NCBI GenBank assembly: GCA_030648255.1
Contig: JAUSHZ010000007.1
Location: 24,404-88,403 of the forward strand
Source of the DNA: a bacterium
Lineage (GTDB): Bacteria; Patescibacteriota; Minisyncoccia; Minisyncoccales; CG1-02-41-26
Direction: 5' to 3'
Length of the DNA stretch: 64,000 bases
The notes beneath the pieces were generated by a model, which worked only from the letters and a program-made list of their open reading frames with translations, did no database searches and was not told the DNA's origin. The position numbers were made by a program, and so were the translations under genes. Each line of letters opens with the position of its first letter. Position 1 is the stretch's first letter. Of the stretch, positions 3,086-49,115 are shown one piece after another.

Positions 3086-3304
3086 TCATTTAAGTCTATA
3101 AACTATTCTGCCTCTTTTATCATCAATAGAGGCCATTTCAACCAACACCTTATCGCCCAACAAAATTTTTATGCGATTAATTCTAAGCTTCCCGGCCAAA
3201 TGCGCCAAAACCTCGTTTCCATTTTCCAATTGAATTTTAAATAAAAGACTAGGCAAAGCCTCTACAACTTGGCCTCTTTCTCTTATTGTATTAATTTGTT
3301 TCAT
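3086..3304 (-). CDS. infA: Translation initiation factor IF-1
   Basis: 72 aa S1-like OB fold; GQVVEALPSLLFKIQLENGNEVLAHLAGKLR..ILLGDKVLVEMASID. Confidence 0.93.
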   Translation of the reverse strand: MKQINTIRERGQVVEALPSLLFKIQLENGNEVLAHLAGKLRINRIKILLGDKVLVEMASIDDKRGRIVYRLK

Positions 3305-3320
3305 CTCGTTACGATTGTCT

Positions 3321-3349
3321 AAAATAGCAAATTATTCAAAAAAGGTCAA
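3321..3349 (-). promoter_or_regulatory. Sigma-70-type promoter for infA-rpmJ-rpsM-rpsK-rpsD-rpoA
   Basis: Minus sense TTGACC - 17 nt - TATTTT, preceded by GGGG; about 15 nt upstream of infA. Confidence 0.5.
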
Positions 3350-3358
3350 CCCCTTTGG

Positions 3359-4738
3359 CTAGAAAACCATTTCTATCTTTATCTTATCTAGGCTTTTTGG
3401 CGCTCTTTTTATCCAAAAAGGCCAAAATTGCGTGTCCAGTCGTTCAATTTGGGGGTAGCTATTATTCAATAAAATCTCCATATCTTCTTTAGATTTTCCA
3501 GCTAAATCCGCAATTAAGGCTGTTTGGTCAATATCATTATAAAGCTTGGCATCTGTTTTTAAATTAAAAATCAAACTCCCTTTTTCCGTAATGCTGCCTT
3601 TTGGAACTACGCTTGTCGCTAAGCTTTGTTCGTATAATTTCTTTGAAGAAGATAGTTTTGTATCAATAAAGCTTTTGGCCATATCCTGCAAATCTGATCC
3701 CTTAAAAACAATTGTCTTAGCTTTTATTTTTGCATAACAATTAAATTCAGCGAGGTTGGCGCCAACAGCTTGAGAACAAGAGAACTCGGGCTCGCCATAG
3801 TCAACTGATTCTTGGTTAAAAGAAAATCCAGCGGTTGTTTGCTCCTTCAAGCCCGAAACAGCCATTTTTTTTAACTCCCTAATCAAGCTTTCTTGAGCAT
3901 TATCCATATCTCCTTGAGTTACTTGATCAACTTCTTTCTGACCCCCGCCGTCAATTTTTTCTCTTGATTCACCCCAAACATTATAGTATAAAGCTGTTCC
4001 TGTTAATCCTGGAATAGAAAACTTAGCAGGGGCTATATTATATTCCTCTCCCTCCTGATCAGCGACAACCTGAACCTCTGTAATGCTTGGGGTTAATTTT
4101 CCATTAAACAATGTGGCTTGGGGCAAAGAAATCTTATTTTTTGCCCGATAAACCTTTCCATCTTTTGATGATATAAATCTTGTTCCTGCTTTTAAGTTTA
4201 AGGGCATTGGGGGATTAATATTATTGTAAACAAATATAGCGCCCGTTGCCCCAGATTGTTCTGTTTCTTTTCCAGTTGACTTAAATGTTTCCCATTTCTC
4301 TACTTCTTTTTCAATTACATTTCCGGGAATAATCTTTTTTTCAAAATCGATTTGCGCTTGAGAAAAAGAAACTTGAATCTCGTCTTTAATTGTAATTGGC
4401 TCTAATAGCGGTTTCACGCTTATTTCTGCTTTTGCCTGCATCGTTAAATATAAAAAGGCTCCCCCTAAAAGCAAAATGGCTACACCAATAACTATGGGAA
4501 TTTTTAGAGCAAGTCTTGGTAAAGTAAAAGAAACTCGAATTTCTTTTTTTCCCTTGCCACGTCGGAGTTCCGCAGGAACGGAGGCGGGTCTTTCTTTTTT
4601 CACCTCCCCCTTCTTCATCCCCTTTCTTGTAGGTGATTTTTTTTGAGGCTTAGTTGAAGCTAAAACAATTGGAAATTGTTCCTCTGTTTCTTCTGCTTCT
4701 TCCTCATCTGGATTTGTTATATCAATAATTTGCTTCAT
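3359..4738 (-). CDS. Membrane-anchored hypothetical protein with large extracytoplasmic domain
   Basis: 459 aa; Lys/Glu-rich N-terminus and one TM helix (IPIVIGVAILLLGGAFLYL). Weak memory-based resemblance to baseplate-J-like proteins annotated in CPR genomes. Preceded by a short element copy. Confidence 0.6.
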   Translation of the reverse strand: MKQIIDITNPDEEEAEETEEQFPIVLASTKPQKKSPTRKGMKKGEVKKERPASVPAELRRGKGKKEIRVSFTLPRLALKIPIVIGVAILLLGGAFLYLTMQAKAEISVKPLLEPITIKDEIQVSFSQAQIDFEKKIIPGNVIEKEVEKWETFKSTGKETEQSGATGAIFVYNNINPPMPLNLKAGTRFISSKDGKVYRAKNKISLPQATLFNGKLTPSITEVQVVADQEGEEYNIAPAKFSIPGLTGTALYYNVWGESREKIDGGGQKEVDQVTQGDMDNAQESLIRELKKMAVSGLKEQTTAGFSFNQESVDYGEPEFSCSQAVGANLAEFNCYAKIKAKTIVFKGSDLQDMAKSFIDTKLSSSKKLYEQSLATSVVPKGSITEKGSLIFNLKTDAKLYNDIDQTALIADLAGKSKEDMEILLNNSYPQIERLDTQFWPFWIKRAPKSLDKIKIEMVF

Positions 4739-6621: not shown

Positions 6622-7377
6622 CTAAATATTTTTTACCATAGCAGTAAATTCTTTTATATTCAATGAAGCGCCACCAACTAAGAGGCCATCAATTGCTTCA
6701 TTTTCTAAATATTTATTTGCGTTGTCTGACCCAACGCTTCCACCGTATAAAACTCTTACTTTCTCTTTGGCTTTTCTGCCGTAAATTTCAGCTATTAATT
6801 TTTTTATATATAAAGCCATTGTTAAGGCGTCGTCGGGAGCACAGGTTAATCCTTGGTTTGTGCTAATTGCCCACAAGGGCTCATAGGCTATAACAAGCTC
6901 TCCTACTTGTTGTTTTTTAATAGCTTTTAAGCTTTCCCTTAGCTTTTTCTCAACAATTTGAAATGTTTTGCTTTGGTTTCTTTCTTCTAATGTCTCGCCA
7001 ATGCAAACAACTGGTGTTAAACCCGTGCTTAACACGGCTTTTACTTTTTTGGCAGTCATCTCATTTGTTTCTCCCATTACCATTACTCTTTCAGAATGAC
7101 CTAAAATAACATACTTAACTCCTAAATTTTTTAGCATTGTTGGCGAAACCTCGCCCGTGAATGCTCCTTGATTTTCCCAAAAACAATCTTGCGATCCAAT
7201 TTTTACTGCCCCAACTCCAAAAACTTTTTTTGCCTCTGCTAAATAAACAAAGGGGGGGCAAACCACAACTTCTATTTTATTGTTTTTTATCCCCGCTCTC
7301 AATCCAACCATCATCTTTTGCGCCTCTTTTAGGGTTGTTGGATTACACTTCCAATTTGCAATAATTAGCTTTTTCAT
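6622..7377 (-). CDS. tpiA: Triosephosphate isomerase
   Basis: 251 aa; ANWKCN, GHSERV, AYEPLWAI and YGGSV motifs. Confidence 0.92.
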   Translation of the reverse strand: MKKLIIANWKCNPTTLKEAQKMMVGLRAGIKNNKIEVVVCPPFVYLAEAKKVFGVGAVKIGSQDCFWENQGAFTGEVSPTMLKNLGVKYVILGHSERVMVMGETNEMTAKKVKAVLSTGLTPVVCIGETLEERNQSKTFQIVEKKLRESLKAIKKQQVGELVIAYEPLWAISTNQGLTCAPDDALTMALYIKKLIAEIYGRKAKEKVRVLYGGSVGSDNANKYLENEAIDGLLVGGASLNIKEFTAMVKNI

Positions 7378-31366: not shown

Positions 31367-31401
31367 TGCTCATTTTGTTAATTCGCTTCGCTCAAAACAA
31401 A

Positions 31402-31686
31402 ATGGCAAAAGTATGTACAATATGTGGCAAGGGCTCATTAATGTTTGGAAAATTAAACAAGTTAAGGGGAAAATATAACCCAGCCCCAAAAGTAAGAAAA
31501 TACCCAAACCTTCAATGGCTAACTGTGCCAAAAGATGTTCGCAATAAAAAATTCACTAAGCTTGCTGGCCAAAGAATCGAGGCCTGTACTAAGTGTATTA
31601 AAACTTTATCTAAGCCCGTGCGACAGAAAAAGCAAAAAGAATCTCCAAAAGAAGAAGTAAAAGAACCCGCAAAAATCGGGGCATAG
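31402..31686 (+). CDS. rpmB: 50S ribosomal protein L28
   Basis: MAKVCTICGKGSLMFGKLNKLRGKYNPAPKVRKYPNLQW.. Start at the internal ATG 31402; Lys-rich C-terminal tail. Confidence 0.88.
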   Translation: MAKVCTICGKGSLMFGKLNKLRGKYNPAPKVRKYPNLQWLTVPKDVRNKKFTKLAGQRIEACTKCIKTLSKPVRQKKQKESPKEEVKEPAKIGA

Positions 31687-31700
31687 TATATCAGTATTAT

Positions 31701-31760
31701 GCAGGGCTGGGGGTCCTGTGAGCTGGGTGCGATTCCCAGTGCCCCGACTGTAAAGCCCGC
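31701..31760 (+). other. T-arm-like capped hairpin in the rpmB 3' UTR
   Basis: gc(a)gggct/agcccgc and gggg/cccc stems capped by ctggg-tgcgatt-cccag (5-bp stem, 7-nt loop, T-loop-like). Confidence 0.4.
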
Positions 31761-31765
31761 CAAAC

Positions 31766-31792
31766 CAAAAACCGCCGAAAGGCGGTTTTTGG
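31766..31792 (+). terminator. rpmB rho-independent terminator
   Basis: aaaaaccgccgaaaggcggttttt + gg. Confidence 0.8.
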
Positions 31793-31832
31793 TTAAATTA
31801 TTACACTGGTAAGACCTGTGTAAAACTTTATC

Positions 31833-31862
31833 TTGACAATGGTTATATTTTTTTGCTAATAT
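31833..31862 (+). promoter_or_regulatory. Strong promoter for the small RNA at 31868-32040
   Basis: TTGACA - 18 nt - TAATAT. Confidence 0.6.
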
Positions 31863-31867
31863 AACAG

Positions 31868-32040
31868 TGTGCTTGTGGGGCGTCAGCCCTATTCGGCTAA
31901 TTCCTAAGCTGAAGGCAGGCACATTTACATCTTCTTGCGGGGCTGAAATGCAGAAAATCGGCTCTACTGCGGGGTGCGAGTAGTCCCTTTACGGGGTATC
32001 CAAAGCGCTACGAGGGAGGGTTGCCGTCCTCCCAGCTCCA
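31868..32040 (+). ncRNA. Small RNA with tmRNA/tRNA-Ala-like terminal domain (identity unresolved)
   Basis: 5' hairpin uguGCUUG../..CAGGCACA (31868-31923). GGGGCUG (31939-31945) pairs with CAGCUCC (32033-32039) including G3-U. Preceded by the arm GGAGG-guugccgu-CCUCC. 3' ..CCCAGCUCCA matches the E. coli ssrA 3' end from memory. No tag ORF found. Confidence 0.4.
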
Positions 32041-32247
32041 CAAGAGGATGTATTTTTTTATATAATCGTTATCTCGCAATCTAAATGCTGTGGCAATTTG
32101 AATTTCTTCTAATTCTATTCCATCGCATAATATTTTTACAGCTTCAATGGAGCATAAATAATCTAAACTTCCAATTCTTTTCACCAAGCAATACCCACCC
32201 CGTTTGCTTGTTTTATTTTGGTAAATTTTATCTGGATACTTAACTAT

Positions 32248-32436
32248 TTATTCCTCAACCTCAACCCCACACTCCCGACAAAAAATCTTAAAATCATTTA
32301 TGTTCTCGGTATGGTCAACCTGAAGCTGGCCATCAGAAAAAGTCAAAATGTCGTATTGATTCGGCTCACTAACAAACTCCCCCGCCCCACACTTCGCACA
32401 ACACCCATCAACTATTTTAAAAAACTTTTTTGACAT
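32248..32436 (-). CDS. Small zinc-ribbon protein
   Basis: 62 aa; CAKCG..CRECG pairs. Confidence 0.55.
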   Translation of the reverse strand: MSKKFFKIVDGCCAKCGAGEFVSEPNQYDILTFSDGQLQVDHTENINDFKIFCRECGVEVEE

Positions 32437-32440
32437 GAGT

Positions 32441-32983
32441 TTAAAATATTCTAAAAATAAAAAAATCTTGTGGTAAAAAAGAAACTAGAATAACCGTAGT
32501 GCCAATGACAAATAAAATTAGTAAAACATTTAATGCGGTAGTTCCATAATTTTCCTGTTCTTTTGGTTGCTTCATTGTGTTTGCTAAATTTATCGTTTTT
32601 TCTTTTAATTGTTCCATTCTAATTTCTATCAAATCCTTTGACACTATTTGCATTCTTGCCTCAATGATTTTACCTAATTCCTTAATCCATTTTTTATATT
32701 TTCCAGCTTCATCAATAAAAGTTCTCTTCACCCAAAAAATTGCGTATGCGATAGATAAAAATAATATAAATTGTCCAAGTAGCCATAATTCTAAATGTTT
32801 TGCAAAAGATAATGCTGTAAAGCCAAAACCAGCTATTAAACCAAACACTTGGACTAATTTATATACATAATCAAGTGCCCTTTCCCTCACTTTCTCGTGT
32901 GCTTGCACTATTTCTTCCTGTAATTTTATATCCTCGTGAAGATAATATAAATTATCTTTGAGTAATTGTGTGTATTCTTTCAT
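32441..32983 (-). CDS. Hypothetical membrane protein
   Basis: 180 aa; coiled N-terminus, two central TM helices and a C-terminal TM. Confidence 0.55.
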   Translation of the reverse strand: MKEYTQLLKDNLYYLHEDIKLQEEIVQAHEKVRERALDYVYKLVQVFGLIAGFGFTALSFAKHLELWLLGQFILFLSIAYAIFWVKRTFIDEAGKYKKWIKELGKIIEARMQIVSKDLIEIRMEQLKEKTINLANTMKQPKEQENYGTTALNVLLILFVIGTTVILVSFLPQDFFIFRIF

Positions 32984-33036
32984 ATTTTAAAAACCTTCTT
33001 TGCCATAGATTTAATTAGCTGGAATCTAAAAGAAAT

Positions 33037-33285
33037 TTACCTATATTTTTCTGGCATAAATTTTGCTTCTTCCTGCCAAGTCAAATTAAATACATCTTCG
33101 CCAATTCTATGAAATTCAAATAGACAATCTCCATCTACACATCCATCTTCTTCGTCCCATTCCTCAACACTAACCATATTTTCGTCTTTTAAACAATCAA
33201 CCGTACCTAATCCATTTTTTTCGCAAATGTCTGCTATATCGTCAAAAGAATACTTTTTATCTTTTGTAAAAATTTCCATAATCAT
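33037..33285 (-). CDS. Hypothetical acidic protein
   Basis: 82 aa, no recognised motif. Confidence 0.45.
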   Translation of the reverse strand: MIMEIFTKDKKYSFDDIADICEKNGLGTVDCLKDENMVSVEEWDEEDGCVDGDCLFEFHRIGEDVFNLTWQEEAKFMPEKYR

Positions 33286-33457
33286 AATTAAGAAATATTT
33301 CTTTTACATCTTTTTTTGAGTATCTCTCAATAACAACACTCTTATTCCAAACTTGTAGATCTTTTCCCTCGTACTCCAAATAATCAAACGGCTCAGTAGT
33401 CGTTTTGAAATACGAATAAATTTTATTGTATTGAGATTCTAATTTTTTATAATTCAT
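33257..33457 (-). CDS. Hypothetical protein
   Basis: 66 aa, no recognised motif. Confidence 0.4.
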   Translation of the reverse strand: MNYKKLESQYNKIYSYFKTTTEPFDYLEYEGKDLQVWNKSVVIERYSKKDVKEIFLNYDYGNFYKR

Positions 33458-33462
33458 AATTT

Positions 33463-34305
33463 TTATGAAAAATCTGTTAAAAACTTGATTTGGTTTGCTT
33501 GTTGCACATTAAAGTTTATTTTATTTTTGATAAATTCCAAACGATATTCTGGAGAAATTTCCCCGCCATTTGCCAACCTATCTAAAATCATTTGATAATA
33601 TTTAGGATGTATTTCACAAGAAACAAAATCTCTCTTAAGTTCTTTACATTTTAGTAGCTCTGAACCACTCCCACCAAACAACACAAAAATATTGTCGCCT
33701 TCTTTGGTGCTTGATTTTATCAACATTTCAACTAAGCTCAAAGGTATTTGGCAAGAATGAAAAGTTTTATCTTTAGAAACATTTTTAACTAAATCAAAAT
33801 AAAACCAAGAGTATGGCATCCTTCCAGCACTTCCATTTTTAATTCTTCCCTGTATTCTTTTATCGGTTGGATTTTGATAGGGTAAAGCAACTTGATCTTT
33901 ATAAAAATTATTATTTTTTGTTTTTGTAGCGTGTAAAATAACTCTATGGGCAGTGGTAAATTTTTTATCGCTATGGCCAATATTTGAGTTATAAACCCAA
34001 ACATAGTCATTTACTAAAAAGGCATTGTCGTCTAGAAATTTTACTCTTAAATAGGCATTTTGTTTTGGGTAATTCATCATAAATAAATTCCCTGTCGGTT
34101 TTAAAACCCTCATACATTCTTTCGTAAGCTCAATATACCAATCAATATACTCATTCCATTTAGCGGTAAATTTTTTACCAGCATAATTTATGCCCACATT
34201 ATAATCTGGGTCACCATATACCATATCAACCGAATTATCTGGCATTTTCTTTAGAGTAACTAGAATATCGTCATTAAAAATTTTGTTTATAAAATTTTCT
34301 ATCAT
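33463..34305 (-). CDS. DNA methyltransferase (N6-adenine/N4-cytosine, beta class)
   Basis: 280 aa; motif IV-like GDPDYNV near the N-terminus and motif I VLFGGSGSE near the C-terminus (IV-before-I order). Confidence 0.8.
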   Translation of the reverse strand: MIENFINKIFNDDILVTLKKMPDNSVDMVYGDPDYNVGINYAGKKFTAKWNEYIDWYIELTKECMRVLKPTGNLFMMNYPKQNAYLRVKFLDDNAFLVNDYVWVYNSNIGHSDKKFTTAHRVILHATKTKNNNFYKDQVALPYQNPTDKRIQGRIKNGSAGRMPYSWFYFDLVKNVSKDKTFHSCQIPLSLVEMLIKSSTKEGDNIFVLFGGSGSELLKCKELKRDFVSCEIHPKYYQMILDRLANGGEISPEYRLEFIKNKINFNVQQANQIKFLTDFS

Positions 34306-35141
34306 TTTTTGTTTTGATTTATTAAGTTATACCTAACTGACTTTAAAAATTTAATTGAAGTTATGTCTTGGGGATTAGTAAAAGTATAAGCATACAAATT
34401 AAGTGCATCAAACCCCTTTTGCCTTTCCCTGACCACATAGATACAAACAATTTCTTTTATTTTTGTTTTTAATTCTGGTTTTTGTTTTGCCTGCCAATAA
34501 TAAAGAAAGGGGTGGTAAATTTGGTATATCGAAAAATTCGTTGGCTTACCATTTTTTGCTTCAAAAATCCCTATTTTGCCCATAAATTCAATCGTTAAAT
34601 CAATCTCAATCTGAACTTTATTTAGTTTTATCCCTACATTTTTACCAAAACCATACCCTAAATTAGCTTTTGTTCTATGGGGAAAATATGTTTTTGGTCT
34701 ACTGGCAATGTCCGAATTATCAAACTCTTTGTCTTGACCAAATAAAAAGTGATGCAAAATTCGCTGATTGTTTGCAACCGACAAAATATTCGATTCGCTG
34801 GTGTTGTATTGGTTTAAAATTGATTTTTTATATTGCCAATCAATTATCTTTTGTATTGGCTCAAAATTATGATAAATTTTTTCTATATCTTTAATAAACT
34901 GGTGCTTTCCACTTCCTAAATGAATAAGAGCAAAATCTTCTTTTTGCAAAGCAACAGGCAGTCTTTCTTTGGTATCTAGTTTTGTAGCGTCGAAATGATT
35001 TTGAAATCCTACTTTTTTAGAAACCGCTTTAACTAAGTCATTGTCAAAAACAAAATCGTTTTTATCTTTACAAATTTTAAAAATCATCGACAAAACCTTT
35101 TTCTTTTTATTTTCTTTTTGTGAAGCTTTTTTGGTACTCAT
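34302..35141 (-). CDS. Putative type II restriction endonuclease
   Basis: 279 aa; 4-nt overlap with the methylase gene. PD-(D/E)xK-like ..IDLTIEF..GIFEAKNG. Confidence 0.6.
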   Translation of the reverse strand: MSTKKASQKENKKKKVLSMIFKICKDKNDFVFDNDLVKAVSKKVGFQNHFDATKLDTKERLPVALQKEDFALIHLGSGKHQFIKDIEKIYHNFEPIQKIIDWQYKKSILNQYNTSESNILSVANNQRILHHFLFGQDKEFDNSDIASRPKTYFPHRTKANLGYGFGKNVGIKLNKVQIEIDLTIEFMGKIGIFEAKNGKPTNFSIYQIYHPFLYYWQAKQKPELKTKIKEIVCIYVVRERQKGFDALNLYAYTFTNPQDITSIKFLKSVRYNLINQNKK

Positions 35142-35165
35142 AATTTTATTTTTACTATATCAAAA

Positions 35166-35786
35166 TTAAATACTTTTGTCTTTCACTACATCTGTGAAAT
35201 TTCTCAAAACACTGATGACTTTGCCTTGGATTATTACGGTTTTAACATATAGGGGTTTTAAGGCGGGGTTGGCGGGTTGGAGGCGGATGCGGGTTTTTTC
35301 TTTAAATATCTTTTTTAAAGTAACTTCGTTGCCGTTTATCAACGCCACAGCTGTTTCCCCATTTTCTACGGTGTTTTGTTTGCGGATTATCACAGTATCC
35401 CCATCAAAAATACCTTCGTCAATCATACTGTTGCCTTTTACCCCCAAAGCAAAATGTTCGCCCGAGACAGCCACCATATTTTGAGGCACGGTTATAGTTT
35501 CGTGTTCTTCAATAGCTTCAATTGGCTCACCTGCGGCAATGTATCCCTTAAATGGAATGCTAACACTTGACTCCTGCTTGCCAACTTTTACAGCTCTAGC
35601 GATATTTTTTTCTCGCGTAATATAACCCTTTCCTTGCAAGACCTGCATATAGTGGTTCACTGTTGAAACAGACGCCAACTTAAAATGTTTTCTTATTTCC
35701 TCGTGCGATGGGCTATACCCATTTTTTTCAAAACAATTTTGAATATAATCCAAAAACTTTTTTTGTTTTTTAGTAAGTGAAAACAT
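35166..35786 (-). CDS. lexA: LexA-like repressor (S24 peptidase)
   Basis: 206 aa from MFSLTKKQKKFLDYI; wHTH, AAGEPI cleavage-region motif, GNSM (Ser) and TLKK (Lys) catalytic dyad context. Confidence 0.8.
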   Translation of the reverse strand: MFSLTKKQKKFLDYIQNCFEKNGYSPSHEEIRKHFKLASVSTVNHYMQVLQGKGYITREKNIARAVKVGKQESSVSIPFKGYIAAGEPIEAIEEHETITVPQNMVAVSGEHFALGVKGNSMIDEGIFDGDTVIIRKQNTVENGETAVALINGNEVTLKKIFKEKTRIRLQPANPALKPLYVKTVIIQGKVISVLRNFTDVVKDKSI

Positions 35787-35957
35787 ATGAATACTTTTAT
35801 TCACTGTAATAGAACAAAAATAGAAAATCAAGCCAAGTTATCCACAGCAACCAAAAAGACGGCTTTAGCCGTCATTAGACAAAAACACCCCTTAAAAAAT
35901 TTTACAGAAACTTTGAAAATTCTGCTGGCGAAACATTTATTTCCCGCAAAATTTGTC

Positions 35958-40017: not shown

Positions 40018-42660
40018 TTAGCTCATTTTGCTCAAGCGAGCGAAGAGAAAGAAAATTAAAGTGAATATTATGGCCATGGCAAACGGGGCTACACTAGAAA
40101 GCCAGTTGCGTTTGTTTGGCTTAAAGCCACGCAAAAATAATGAATTAGAAACCACCGAAACCGAGCTCAAAGCCATAGCCAGGCCTGCCAATTCGGGTTT
40201 TAAAACAATGCCCAGCCCCACCAAAACTCGAGCCGCAATTGGAATGCCCATTACATTATAAAACAAAGCAAAAAACATATTTTGTTTTATTTTGCTCATT
40301 GTTTCTTTGCTTAACTGTATGGCAGTTAACACATCTCGCAAATCATCTTTGATTATCACAATGCCCCCTGCCTCCATTGCCACGTCTGTGCCACTGCCCA
40401 TAGCAATGCCCAAATCCGCTTGGGCTAAAGCTGGAGCGTCATTTATGCCATCTCCCACCATTGCCACTTTAATACCTGTATCTTGCAATTTTTTAATTTC
40501 ATTGGCTTTATCTTGAGGCAGAACTTCAGCTAAAACATTTTTTATGCCAGCCTGTTTAGCGATAGCTTGGGCTGTTCTTTGATTGTCCCCTGTTATCATA
40601 TAAACGGCTATGCCTCTTTTTTGTAATAAAGAAACTGTTTCTGCTGATGTTTCTTTAATAGTGTCAGCCACCGCCACCAATCCCAAAATTTCCTGGCTTG
40701 AAGCCAAGATCATTACGGTCTTTCCTTCTTCTTCTAAGCGTTTCATCTTTCTTTCGATGCCTTCCACTTTAAAGCCAGCGATATCCATAATTAACTTACG
40801 ATTGCCCAAATAATATTTATTAGCATTGATAACTCCCTCAACACCATGCCCGGGAATTGCTTTAAAATTACTTGCTTCTTTTATAGTAATTGCCTCTTCT
40901 CCTGCGTATTTAACAATGGCTTCAGCTAATGGATGTTCGGATAATTTTTCCAAGCTTGCTGCTATAGCGATAACTTCGTCTTCGTCAATTGAGGTAACTC
41001 CAACAATATCTGTAACCTCTGGCTTGCCTTTAGTTAAAGTGCCTGTTTTATCAAAGACAATCGCCCTTACTTTACAAGCCGCTTCCAATGGCTCCCCTCC
41101 TTTAATTAAAATACCGCTTTCAGCGCCCTTGCCAGTTCCTACCATAATAGCGGTTGGCGTGGCTAATCCCAAAGCACAAGGGCAGGCAATAACAATTACC
41201 GAAGTAAATGCCATTAAAGCAAAACTCAAGCTAGAACCTAATATAAAAAACCAAATTAAAAATGTTAAAACAGATATTCCCAAAACAATAGGCACAAACT
41301 TAGCGGAAATTTTATCAGCCACCGCCTGAATAGGGGCTTTAGAGCCTTGGGCGTCTTCAATTAAGCGGATAATTTGCGCTAACGCAGTTTCTTTGCCAAC
41401 TTTAGTGGCTTTAAATTCAAAACTGCCATTTTTGTTAATAGTGGCGCCAATAACCATATCCCCAATATTTTTTTCTTTGGGAATGCTCTCCCCTGTTAGC
41501 ATTGACTCGTCCACCGATGACTGGCCTTTAACAATAACACCGTCAACTGGAATTTTTTCACCCGGCCGAACCACCACAATATCCCCTGCCATTACTTGGT
41601 CCACTGGAATATCAACTGTTGAACTGCCACGAGTCACTCGAGCTGTTTTTGGCTGCAAGCCAACCAGCTTTTTAATGGCTTGAGAAGTTCTGCCTTTGGC
41701 TTTTGCCTCAAGAAACTTTCCTAAAGAAACAAAAGTAATTAAAAAAGCGGCTGTTTCAAAATAGAGTTCTGGTATTTTGGCGCCAGCCAATCCGATTACA
41801 GAATTATTTACAACAATATAATTAATAAACTGCCACAAGCTATAGAAAAAAGCGGTGCTGGTGCCAATGGCAATCAAACTATCCATATTAAAGGTTTTCA
41901 TTTTCAGCCCGCTCCAAAACCCTTTGTAAAATCCCTTGCCAATAATAAACTGGACAGGCAAAGTTAAAATTAAAGAAATAATGCCAATGTAGGGTAAAAA
42001 AGCAACGCCTCCCGGTAAGAACTTAAAAAAGTCCAAGAACATAAAGTAAAGCATTGGGGCAGACAACACTGCTCCCCAGATAAATTTCCTCCACAATGAT
42101 TTTATATGCTTTTCTTTGTTAGCGCTTTCTTCCTCTGTGTTTGCCTCCTCGTGTACAGATGCTTTATAGCCAGCTTTATTAACAGCAGAAATTAAATTTT
42201 CAACTGAAGAAACCGAGCTATCAAAAATAACCCGGGCTTTTTCCGCGGCAAAGTTAACCGAAGCGGTTTTAACCCCAGGCGTTTTTTTAATTGCTCTTTC
42301 AATAATACCTGCGCACGAAGCGCAATGCATTCCGCCTAAAATTAAGCTAATATGTTCTTCTCCTTTGCTTTTTGTTGAAGAGGAATCTGGCAATGAGTCG
42401 TGATGGGGCATTTGAGGTGGCTGCAGAACAACCCCAGAGCTAATATTTTGGGTTGATTTAACATCCCCAGAAAAAATACTGAACAACTGGCTAATTTTTG
42501 AAGAGTGAATTAAATTTTCAACAATTTTATCAATGTCTTCTCGGCCTTGGGGCACCTCAAACTCGCCTTTTTTATAATGCTTAACCTTACCTTCAAAATT
42601 TGGAATGTCATTTTTAGAAGAAAAGCTACCTTCTGCTTCCACCATTGACTCCACCTTCAT
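40018..42660 (-). CDS. copA: Copper-translocating P1B-type ATPase
   Basis: HMA GMHCASC, CPC, DKTGT and GDGINDAP. Start set at MKVESM (42660), downstream of the copZ stop; the ORF-track start overlaps copZ. Confidence 0.9.
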
Positions 42661-42676
42661 TTTAAAAGGCGCGTCG

Positions 42677-42970
42677 CTATTTACCGTTTTTTTTTTCCAG
42701 AGAAATTTGCGACTCTTCATTGGCGCTGTTATTGCTATTGTTTTGATTGCCCTCTTCGTTGGCAATCTCTGCTTTATAGCCAGCTTTTTCTATTGTCTGT
42801 AAAACAGCTTGCTCGCTAACAAGACCGCTGTCTATTTCTAATTCCCCAACTCCAGATGTAGAATCTATTTTTATATTGCTTACCCCTGGCAATTCGCCAA
42901 GCTCCATAGTGATAATTTTTTCACAAGAAGCGCAGTGCATACCGCTAATTTTTAGAATTATTTTTTTCAT
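42677..42970 (-). CDS. copZ: Copper chaperone (HMA domain)
   Basis: 97 aa; [11 protein letters not shown], then an Asn/Glu-rich tail. Confidence 0.8.
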
Positions 42971-48956: not shown

Positions 48957-49115
48957 ATTTTTTTATTATATTATAATTATATTAGAGCTGGCAATAATAG
49001 CTTTTAGGAGACCACGAGGGTACCCTCCGCGCATGTGGAGGTCTTAATACTTGTGGTAAATCCTAGGAGACGCCACTCTATAAAAATCATCTCTTTTGAG
49101 GTGTTTTTTATTATT

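Follow-up and report, generated by a model that had tools for sequence, protein, structure and literature searches.

A 64-kb stretch of DNA from a Candidate Phyla Radiation (CPR) bacterium (assembly GCA_030648255.1, contig JAUSHZ010000007.1, positions 24,404 to 88,403; hereafter, the window) carries an intact, promoter-bearing gene for a small structured RNA beside the remains of a gene for a PBECR protein ("phage-Barnase-EndoU-ColicinE5/D-RelE-like nuclease"). The RNA belongs to a family with a conserved four-way junction, and in all loci that we compared, a PBECR gene lies on the opposite strand and overlaps the 3' end of the RNA gene. In the window, a deletion removed the beginning of the PBECR gene, and the RNA is an orphan next to a pseudogene. 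We propose that the RNA and the PBECR protein form a two-gene module that resembles a toxin-antitoxin system, in which the RNA would neutralize an RNase. Judging from the comparisons below, we give this proposal slightly more than an even chance of being correct.

An RNA family that overlaps PBECR genes

A previous reading of the window, made from the sequence alone, had described an RNA that is driven by its own promoter and ends in an acceptor stem and a T-arm like those of transfer-messenger RNA (tmRNA) or tRNA-Ala. The elements that it listed are all present at the positions that it gave, and a promoter-driven structured small RNA on the + strand is supported by the promoter, by a covariance model (R1), and by the evidence on strand. 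The RNA gene and its partner have the following features in the window (MFE, minimum free energy; A4 and A5, alignments of the family):

31833 to 31862, + strand: sigma-70-type promoter, with TTGACA (31833–31838), an 18-nt spacer, and TGnTAATAT (TAATAT at 31857–31862) (promoter scan, 10/12 matches)
31868 to 32059, + strand: whole predicted transcript of ~190 nt, with a leader, a four-way junction closed by helix P1, and a U-tract (MFE fold, R1)
31868 to 31923, + strand: 56-nt leader hairpin, specific to the window and outside the conserved RNA (MFE fold)
31926 to 31945, + strand: 5' strand of P1 (20 pairs), whose last 7 nt (GGGGCUG, 31939–31945) had been read as one side of an acceptor stem
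31950 to 31970, + strand: P2 (GCAG/CUGC), which closes the near-invariant 13-nt loop L2, AAAAUCGGCUCUA (A4, A5)
31973 to 32009, + strand: P3 (GGUGC/GCGCU), whose internal loops are conserved and whose terminal hairpin, P3b (31985–31996), varies (covariation)
32010 to 32014, + strand: junction J3/4, ACGAG in the window (UACGA is invariant) (invariant columns in A5)
32015 to 32032, + strand: P4, previously read as a T-arm, with GGAGG (32015–32019), loop GUUGCCGU (as DNA, GTTGCCGT), and CCUCC (32028–32032)
32033 to 32052, + strand: 3' strand of P1, antisense of the codons Tyr-Ile-Leu-Leu-Trp-Ser-Trp
32053 to 32059, + strand: U7 tract after P1, likely an intrinsic terminator and antisense of Lys-Lys codons (sequence)
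32008 to 32244, − strand: 5'-truncated PBECR pseudogene, with the C-terminal 78 codons (32011–32244) and the stop codon (32008–32010) (translation)
32249 to 32258, no strand: junction of the deletion relative to the related locus L258, about 247 bp absent (blastn)

The −10 element is preceded by TG (that is, it is TG-extended). GGGGCUG pairs with CAGCUCC (32033–32039) through one G·U pair, and an A follows at 32040. However, these seven pairs are only the inner part of a 20-bp helix (31926–31945 with 32033–32052), and in the MFE fold of the window RNA alone the helix already extends outward. The gain over shuffled sequences is only moderate for the single-sequence fold (z = −2.68 over the whole RNA, −0.73 over the 102-nt domain alone); the support for the fold comes from the comparison of homologs. 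Family RNAs have their own strong promoter and the four-way junction and span ~140–150 nt (about 145 nt). The window RNA is longer (~190 nt) because of its unique leader hairpin, which has no counterpart in the homologs and no second copy in the window or the fetched loci; L258 has a shorter, unrelated hairpin at that position.

Homologs were collected in two ways. A scan of metagenomes for the pattern of the RNA's termini gave six (L143, L162, L163, L170, L190, and L212), and R1 was built from these and the window. The termini alone are not rare: GGGGCTGA..CCAGCTCCAC has 55 mostly random matches in viral contigs, and the tighter pattern GGGGCTGAAA..CCAGCTCCA occurs at at least 120 loci in metagenomes. 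When R1 was run on 100 of the latter, only six relatives matched, and these share far more with the window than the termini. Sampling by protein instead gave 103 clusters with a single query and 502 with a profile, from which eight distinct loci were fetched (P0008, P0005, P0102, P0071, P0089, P0050, P0131, and P0124). R1 scores 149 bits on the window (31920–32061, + strand, vs. 22.7 bits on the − strand) and, at 14 further distinct loci, 110–156 bits for the strand of the RNA (at most 36 bits for the opposite one). It does not match the close relatives that lack the element, nor the loci with miniature tmRNA-like genes that are described below. Alignment A5 holds the window, the six loci found by pattern, and the eight found by protein (15 sequences).

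Across A5, 96.8% of the cells in the proposed helices are paired, as compared to 40–51% if the 3' partners are slid, and 16 pairs show changes on both sides; none of 500 shuffles reached the observed values. The covariation is carried by P1 (8 of 20 pairs with double changes, 95.7% of cells paired), P3 (4 of 5 pairs, 100% paired), and P4 (4 of 5 pairs, 100% paired; n = 15 for each). P2 is almost invariant, so covariation cannot test it. The loop of P4 (L4) has 7–11 nt and the consensus ..GYCGY (n = 15), and CGGC in L2 could pair with GYCG in L4 (98% of cells are compatible, with one-sided changes only). J3/4 has 5 nt throughout the family (ACGAG or ACGAU), while P3b folds as a hairpin in every homolog but differs each time in sequence and length.

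Several observations identify the strand. Sigma-70-like promoters lie 16–45 nt upstream of P1 in nearly all of the homologs. A run of U follows P1 in 8 of the 15 sequences, so P1 can act as an intrinsic terminator. G·U pairs make up 70 of the 506 paired cells (14%), and 96.6% of cells are paired on the + strand vs. 82.8% on the reverse strand. Together, the G·U pairs, the promoters, and the U-run imply that the RNA is an independently transcribed gene on the + strand. We also considered a structure on the minus strand, as an element in the 3' untranslated region (UTR) of the mRNA, and rejected it, as the G·U pairs, the promoters, and the U-tract all favor the + strand.

On the opposite strand, every homolog has an open reading frame (ORF) of ~155 codons whose 3' end overlaps the 3' part of the RNA. 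The two genes are convergent and overlap in 15/15 loci (including 8/8 of those sampled by protein and 6/6 of those found by pattern), by about 45–100 nt or the last 15–30 codons. The stop codon of the ORF maps to one of three sites in the RNA: J3/4 (n = 9), L2 (n = 5), or P3b (n = 1). In the window, the antisense of the stop codon is CUA at 32008–32010. UACGA, GGCUCUACUGCGG, and other nucleotides of the RNA do not vary between members in which they are coding, members that read them in another frame, and members in which they are non-coding, which indicates selection on the RNA itself. Also, where a codon in the 3' strand of P1 has changed, the 5' strand, which is non-coding, has changed with it. 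A5 has 47 invariant columns, and the partner proteins are only 40% identical. In some proteins, a long C-terminal tail (...NPHRSALDTPKESTNAPQ) is just the antisense reading of the RNA. About a third of the family's proteins (P0028, P0038, P0044, P0047, P0050, and others) share the C-terminal tail ...GNPHRSALDTPKESTNAPQ, with further examples at L163, L268, L271, and L190. This tail is read in antisense from P4 and P3 up to L2, and the conservation of its amino acids seems to be a by-product of the conservation of the RNA (overprinting).

The partner protein matches the Pfam families PBECR3 and PBECR2 (PF18812/PF18810) with E = 1e-7 to 5e-7. The scores are borderline but consistent (30.0 and 32.3 bits for PBECR3, cut-off 30; 28.4 bits for PBECR2, cut-off 27.1), and most family members carry a precomputed PF18812 match. 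The family alignment shows a nearly invariant His59 and an invariant Thr126, two residues that fit the colicin-D-like active site of PBECR domains (PMC5512222). The protein's AlphaFold2 model has a pLDDT (predicted local distance difference test) of 89.4. A Foldseek search of the PDB gave nothing significant. The fold is nevertheless of the BECR type, and tRNases are among the best structural matches (several of them).

Apart from the PBECR gene, the sampled RNA loci have no conserved neighbor. Their contexts include the ends of housekeeping operons (HD hydrolase, FtsW, YceG, S15/PNPase) and islets with a LexA gene and a restriction-modification (R-M) system (the window, L258, and L274). The named sources are metagenome-assembled genomes (MAGs) of Gribaldobacteria, Moraniibacteria, Vogelbacteria, and Parcubacteria, and one MAG labeled Bacteroidetes (GCA_008501835.1, locus L272). 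In the latter, the PBECR-RNA pair is on an apparent mobile element (L272 2781–5555) with a large serine recombinase, Phage_rep_O, a TrwB-type coupling protein, an N6/N4 methylase, and a PLD nuclease. This locus may show how the module spreads, and it may be an occurrence outside the CPR or a misbinned contig. The PBECR clade has no relatives in IMG/VR, among the INPHARED phages, or among the PLSDB plasmids, and blastn of the window region against the INPHARED phages gave no match.

The deletion in the window is seen by comparison to L258 (GCA_964948515.1), where M50, L28, tRNA-Pro, the RNA, an intact PBECR gene, small ORFs, the R-M genes, and LexA follow each other. L258 5805–5985 corresponds to window 32439–32258 and L258 6233–6556 to window 32249–31926 (94.8% identity; blastn). 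Because the two blocks adjoin in the window, ~247 bp with the start and the first ~77 codons of the PBECR gene were deleted there. The remnant aligns to family residues ~83–152 and lacks the region of the catalytic His.

No Rfam 15 family covers 31868–32059, either at the gathering score or at E ≤ 10 with lax filters. The full-text literature that we searched takes up PBECR in its original description alone and names no RNA partner for it. Absent from both, the RNA family is apparently undescribed.

Possible roles of the RNA

We propose that the RNA is an antitoxin for the PBECR protein, as the two are strictly linked, the module has no protein partner, and the RNA was kept in the window after the loss of the toxin. 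BECR RNases in conflict systems are generally toxic (PMC5512222). The folded RNA would bind the PBECR protein directly, as in type III systems, possibly as a decoy with the shape of a tRNA. A second layer, more like type I, would come from convergent transcription and from antisense pairing where the 3' ends overlap. Within this proposal, we somewhat favor direct binding over antisense action, because antisense action needs neither 47 invariant columns nor compensatory changes in intramolecular helices, and because P1 and P4 lock up the segment with complementarity to the ORF. On the other side, the universal 3' overlap suggests that convergent transcription or antisense pairing contributes. 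The arms, which are arranged much as in a cloverleaf, and the tRNases among the protein's structural relatives make a tRNA-shaped decoy attractive. Still, it is only a tentative suggestion, and a good deal less probable than the module itself, that a single-copy cloverleaf passes for the tRNA substrate of a colicin-D/CdiA-like tRNase, binds the enzyme directly, and thereby blocks it. In the window, the ~247-bp deletion took the start of the predicted toxin and the region of its catalytic His and left the RNA gene behind as an orphan.

Several points weigh against this proposal. We infer the RNase activity of the protein, its toxicity, and its neutralization by the RNA, and PADLOC, NCBIfam, and PHROGs give no functional label to the protein. 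Six of the 15 sequences were ascertained via the pattern of their termini. P2 and the proposed contact between L2 and L4 are invariant and so lack the support of covariation. The architecture departs from both classical types, as the RNA is not an upstream array of tandem repeats and the toxin is not a small membrane peptide. The sequence that is complementary to the ORF is mostly locked in P1 and P4, which is awkward for an antisense RNA, and a strictly kept overlap is unnecessary if the RNA just binds the protein.

Two other roles would keep the RNA and the PBECR gene together. The RNA could act purely in cis as an antisense RNA of type I kind, by pairing with the 3' end or 3' UTR of the PBECR mRNA or by collision of RNA polymerases. 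Cleavage by RNase III or a block of expression would follow, and the fold would serve only for stability and kissing contacts. This would account for the overlap in 15/15 loci and for the location of the RNA's terminator inside the ORF, and the exposed loops of L4, L2, and P3b could start kissing contacts. Also, at three loci a LexA-like repressor and R-M genes precede the PBECR gene, which recalls the SOS-controlled symE, and antitoxin RNAs that overlap the 3' end of the toxin gene are established, as for bsrG/SR4 (PMC3834814). However, complementarity is automatic for overlapping genes and does not require 47 invariant columns, nor the preservation of three intramolecular helices by compensatory changes when the proteins are only 40% identical. 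The complementary segment is sequestered in a 20-bp helix, and the toxin would be a 155-amino-acid enzyme instead of a membrane peptide. We consider a purely antisense role unlikely, though it is the strongest of the alternatives. A little less likely again is that the pair is not a toxin-antitoxin system, and that the RNA serves the PBECR nuclease as cofactor, guide, scaffold, or dedicated substrate, for example in a ribonucleoprotein that takes part in defense or RNA processing. The strict linkage and the lack of another conserved partner are what would be expected; the conservation of the loops would suffice for specific recognition by a protein; some of the loci are near defense genes, beside R-M systems, or on a mobile element; and the authors of the PBECR description proposed roles against RNA-based systems of the host (PMC5512222). 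On the other hand, what varies in the RNA is a short hairpin (P3b) and not a guide-like spacer, and many of the loci are inside ordinary housekeeping operons. The RNA of the window was kept after the nuclease was lost, which fits an antidote better than a cofactor.

Two further readings are far less probable. One, very improbable to us, is that the RNA is a tmRNA in strongly reduced form or a molecule resembling tRNA-Ala that receives alanine. In its favor are the ends GGGGCUGA and CCAGCUCCAC, which match those of E. coli ssrA, and the G·U at position 3:70 in the window. The missing CCA is no obstacle, as the tRNA-Pro gene of this genome does not encode CCA either, and the homolog L143 has a sub-threshold score of 12.7 bits with the Rfam tmRNA model. 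However, ARAGORN and Rfam, including the models for permuted and mitochondrial tmRNAs, found no tmRNA or tRNA at the locus at E ≤ 10, which speaks against a reduced or split tmRNA alike. The silence of Rfam carries weight because RF00023 does detect real tmRNA-like genes of only ~100 nt (at 53.1, 46.2, and 37.4 bits, over the full length of the model). Across the family, position 3:70 is G·U in 11/15 sequences, G-C in 3/15, and A-U in 1/15 (L272), and the "discriminator" A is opposite a U in 13/15, so it is paired and there is no free 3' end. The pairing of the "acceptor stem" is thus as described, but its identity as a 7-bp acceptor is not, since the helix continues for 13 covarying pairs. 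Similarly, the stem of the "T-arm" covaries, but its loop (..GYCGY, 7–11 nt) is not the canonical T-loop UUCRANY. The RNA is tied to the PBECR gene and is missing from the same locus in close relatives. Finally, CCAGCUCCA is accounted for as antisense: it is the reverse complement of TGG-AGC-TGG, the codons for Trp-Ser-Trp in ...LLWSWEDGxPPS*. Where the protein has Trp-Asp-Trp, the RNA has CAGUCCC, with the G·U shifted to position 4; these codons fall in the predicted final beta-strand of the AlphaFold2 model. Judging from the alignment, the resemblance to tmRNA is coincidental, a by-product of the inner 7 bp of P1 and the antisense constraint from Trp-Ser-Trp. Less probable still, and in our view hardly tenable, is that the sequence is the remnant of an attachment (att) site or an integration scar at the edge of an island. 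The RNA does follow immediately on tRNA-Pro, where a variable region begins, and L258 has a duplicated 3' half of a tRNA-Pro near the RNA. However, the window contains no direct repeat of the 3' end of the RNA or of tRNA-Pro, and, as had been noticed before, no integrase is seen (none is among the ORFs listed for 27–42 kb). Above all, the sequence is a conserved, structured gene with a promoter that occurs in many unrelated contexts.

Other searches at the locus bear on the tRNA-like appearance of the RNA. The sequence-only reading had recognized no tag ORF, and indeed no ORF on the + strand is conserved among the homologs. A small one (MQKIGSTAGCE, an 11-codon AUG frame) was rejected because its AUG is not conserved and is absent in L163, L190, and L212. 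We found no tag frame with a resume codon and no pseudoknots; only 88 nt lie inside the closing helix. SmpB is not encoded in the 64-kb window. The only tRNA calls in the window (ARAGORN/Rfam) are tRNA-Pro at 31677–31748 and tRNA-Ser at 55582–55654, and neither RF00005 nor ARAGORN matches at the RNA locus. Of the suggestion that this is a tRNA-like regulatory RNA, the cloverleaf-like order and lengths of the arms hold up, but a detectable homology to tRNA does not.

Besides its mostly random matches, the scan of viral contigs for the termini turned up unrelated tmRNA-like genes of another kind on IMG/VR contigs: L134 5205–5296 (−), L121 467–573 (+), L087 4779–4881 (+), and L136 5789–5893 (+). 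They are ~90–105 nt long, with GGGGCUGA...CCAGCUCCAC ends, canonical T-loops, and no room for a tag ORF or pseudoknots. L136 is the one of the four that the Rfam tmRNA model did not report at E ≤ 0.01, and ARAGORN calls none. From their sequences, these look like tmRNA mimics on viral contigs that consist only of the tRNA-like domain.

Genomic setting in the window and its relatives

The genes upstream of the RNA in the window are an M50 protease, L28, and tRNA-Pro(GGG) (31677–31748), followed by a terminator. The relatives of this L28 place the genome in the Paceibacterota (CPR). Exact-protein look-ups for the window's L28 and 62-amino-acid ORF returned no record. In L007, tRNA-Pro leads almost straight to the ATPase that is found at 40018–42765 of the window. 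L258 has the same layout as the window with the R-M cassette swapped: the window has a DUF6996/6997 endonuclease and an N4/N6 methylase, while L258 has an NgoPII-type enzyme and a C5 methylase. More distant relatives have other genes after tRNA-Pro. These differences place the RNA at the edge of a variable islet, as the sequence-only reading had supposed and as L007 and L258 bear out. When 81 loci linked to L28 in GTDB genomes were searched with the region (nhmmer), there was no match, and the closest relatives do not have the RNA at this locus.

In the window (32008–35831, − strand), L258 (2316–6474), and L274 (1390–5983), a LexA-like S24 repressor heads a same-strand array in which the R-M system and then the PBECR gene with the RNA follow. 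In L274, the PBECR-RNA pair is between an R-M fusion gene and its S subunit.

The tRNA-Pro genes of this region have peculiarities of their own. That of the window overlaps the end of the L28 ORF by 10 nt and has the T-loop UGCGAUU, with G in place of the universal U55. The corresponding tRNA-like sequences of the closest relatives (L002 ~3293–3365 and L003 ~3284–3356) are not called by ARAGORN. In L258, a stray 3' half of the L002 type of tRNA-Pro (GGCGGTTCCAGTGCGATTCCCTGGACAGCCCGA) lies at ~6700–6740 (− strand reading), ~80 nt downstream of a different, intact tRNA-Pro (6823–6893), and resembles a scar left by an insertion that carried a tRNA end of its own. The terminator after tRNA-Pro in the window (31763–31790, AAAAACCGCC-GAAA-GGCGGTTTTT) is symmetric, with an A-run before it and a T-run after it, and could also end transcription that runs leftward from the PBECR side across the RNA gene.

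An Rfam match to DUF3800-V (48983–49080, + strand, 41.9 bits; gathering cut-off 37.4) marks another structured RNA, in the window's accessory part. In the Logan assembly of SRR13727527 (L001 and L082), made independently from a sample in which this genome is present, the contigs break on both sides of L28, tRNA-Pro, and the RNA (window 31378–32309), which hints at strain variation or low coverage there.

Comparison to known systems and implications

Among type I toxin-antitoxin systems, convergent RNAs that overlap at their 3' ends are known for bsrG/SR4 and txpA/RatA in Bacillus and for par RNA I/RNA II of pAD1, and most type I toxins are small membrane peptides (this is typical but not universal). 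The family RNA resembles these in having its own, constitutive-looking promoter and in being encoded antisense to a predicted toxin gene, with the two 3' ends overlapping. In contrast, PBECR is a soluble BECR-fold enzyme of ~155 amino acids and not a small hydrophobic peptide, and the family RNA has a covarying four-way junction with many invariant unpaired bases and no sequence or Rfam relationship to type I antitoxins. SymE/SymR, in which an RNase-like protein is the toxin of an antisense-RNA pair, illustrates that an RNase-like toxin is possible in such an arrangement.

The antitoxins of type III systems are tandem repeats of ~36 nt that lie upstream of the toxin gene in the same orientation and are processed by the toxin. 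The likeness to these systems (ToxIN, CptIN, TenpIN) is that an endoRNase toxin has a structured RNA as its sole partner, as we predict here. However, the family RNA is a single unit of ~145 nt that is convergent and overlapping, no tandem repeats were found in the RNA region (so it does not have the repeat array of type III), and the PBECR fold is BECR instead of ToxN/Kid-like. Other BECR toxins (colicin D, colicin E5, the CdiA-CT tRNases, and RelE/BrnT) share the fold and apparently the same His/Thr layout, but they are neutralized by proteins, and other PBECR domains are parts of large phage or conjugative proteins. This PBECR clade is a solo chromosomal gene of the CPR with an RNA gene in place of a protein partner.

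As to tmRNA, the seven terminal pairs of the window RNA are identical to a typical ssrA acceptor stem, and the arms follow a cloverleaf-like order, with a stem of 7 or more bp, stems of 4 and 5 bp, a 5-nt junction, and a last stem of 5 bp (P4), which is joined to P1 without a spacer. Yet the RNA lacks a free 3' end, a conserved G3·U70, a T-loop, a D-loop signature, a tag ORF, and pseudoknots, and it is linked to a toxin gene, whereas ssrA is a single-copy housekeeping gene. A caution for annotation is that acceptor-like ends and a hairpin can imitate a fragment of tmRNA. The locus in the window should be annotated as an orphan small RNA gene and a toxin pseudogene, with which a variable LexA/R-M islet begins.

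The overlap is a clean natural case of dual coding, in which the same nucleotides form an RNA helix and encode the tail of the protein that the RNA probably controls. If our proposal is correct, then this is a new RNA family and a new toxin-antitoxin architecture, in which a BECR-fold RNase is held in check by one folded RNA of ~145 nt and not by an immunity protein or an array of RNA repeats. If the RNA is moreover a decoy, then it would represent a class of RNA antitoxins that is neither based on repeats (type III) nor dependent on antisense pairing (type I), that is widespread in CPR bacteria, and in which the C-terminal codons of the toxin are overprinted on the RNA gene. The family comprises at least 502 protein clusters (90% identity) and spans several CPR lineages whose non-coding RNAs, defense systems, and addiction systems have been little studied.

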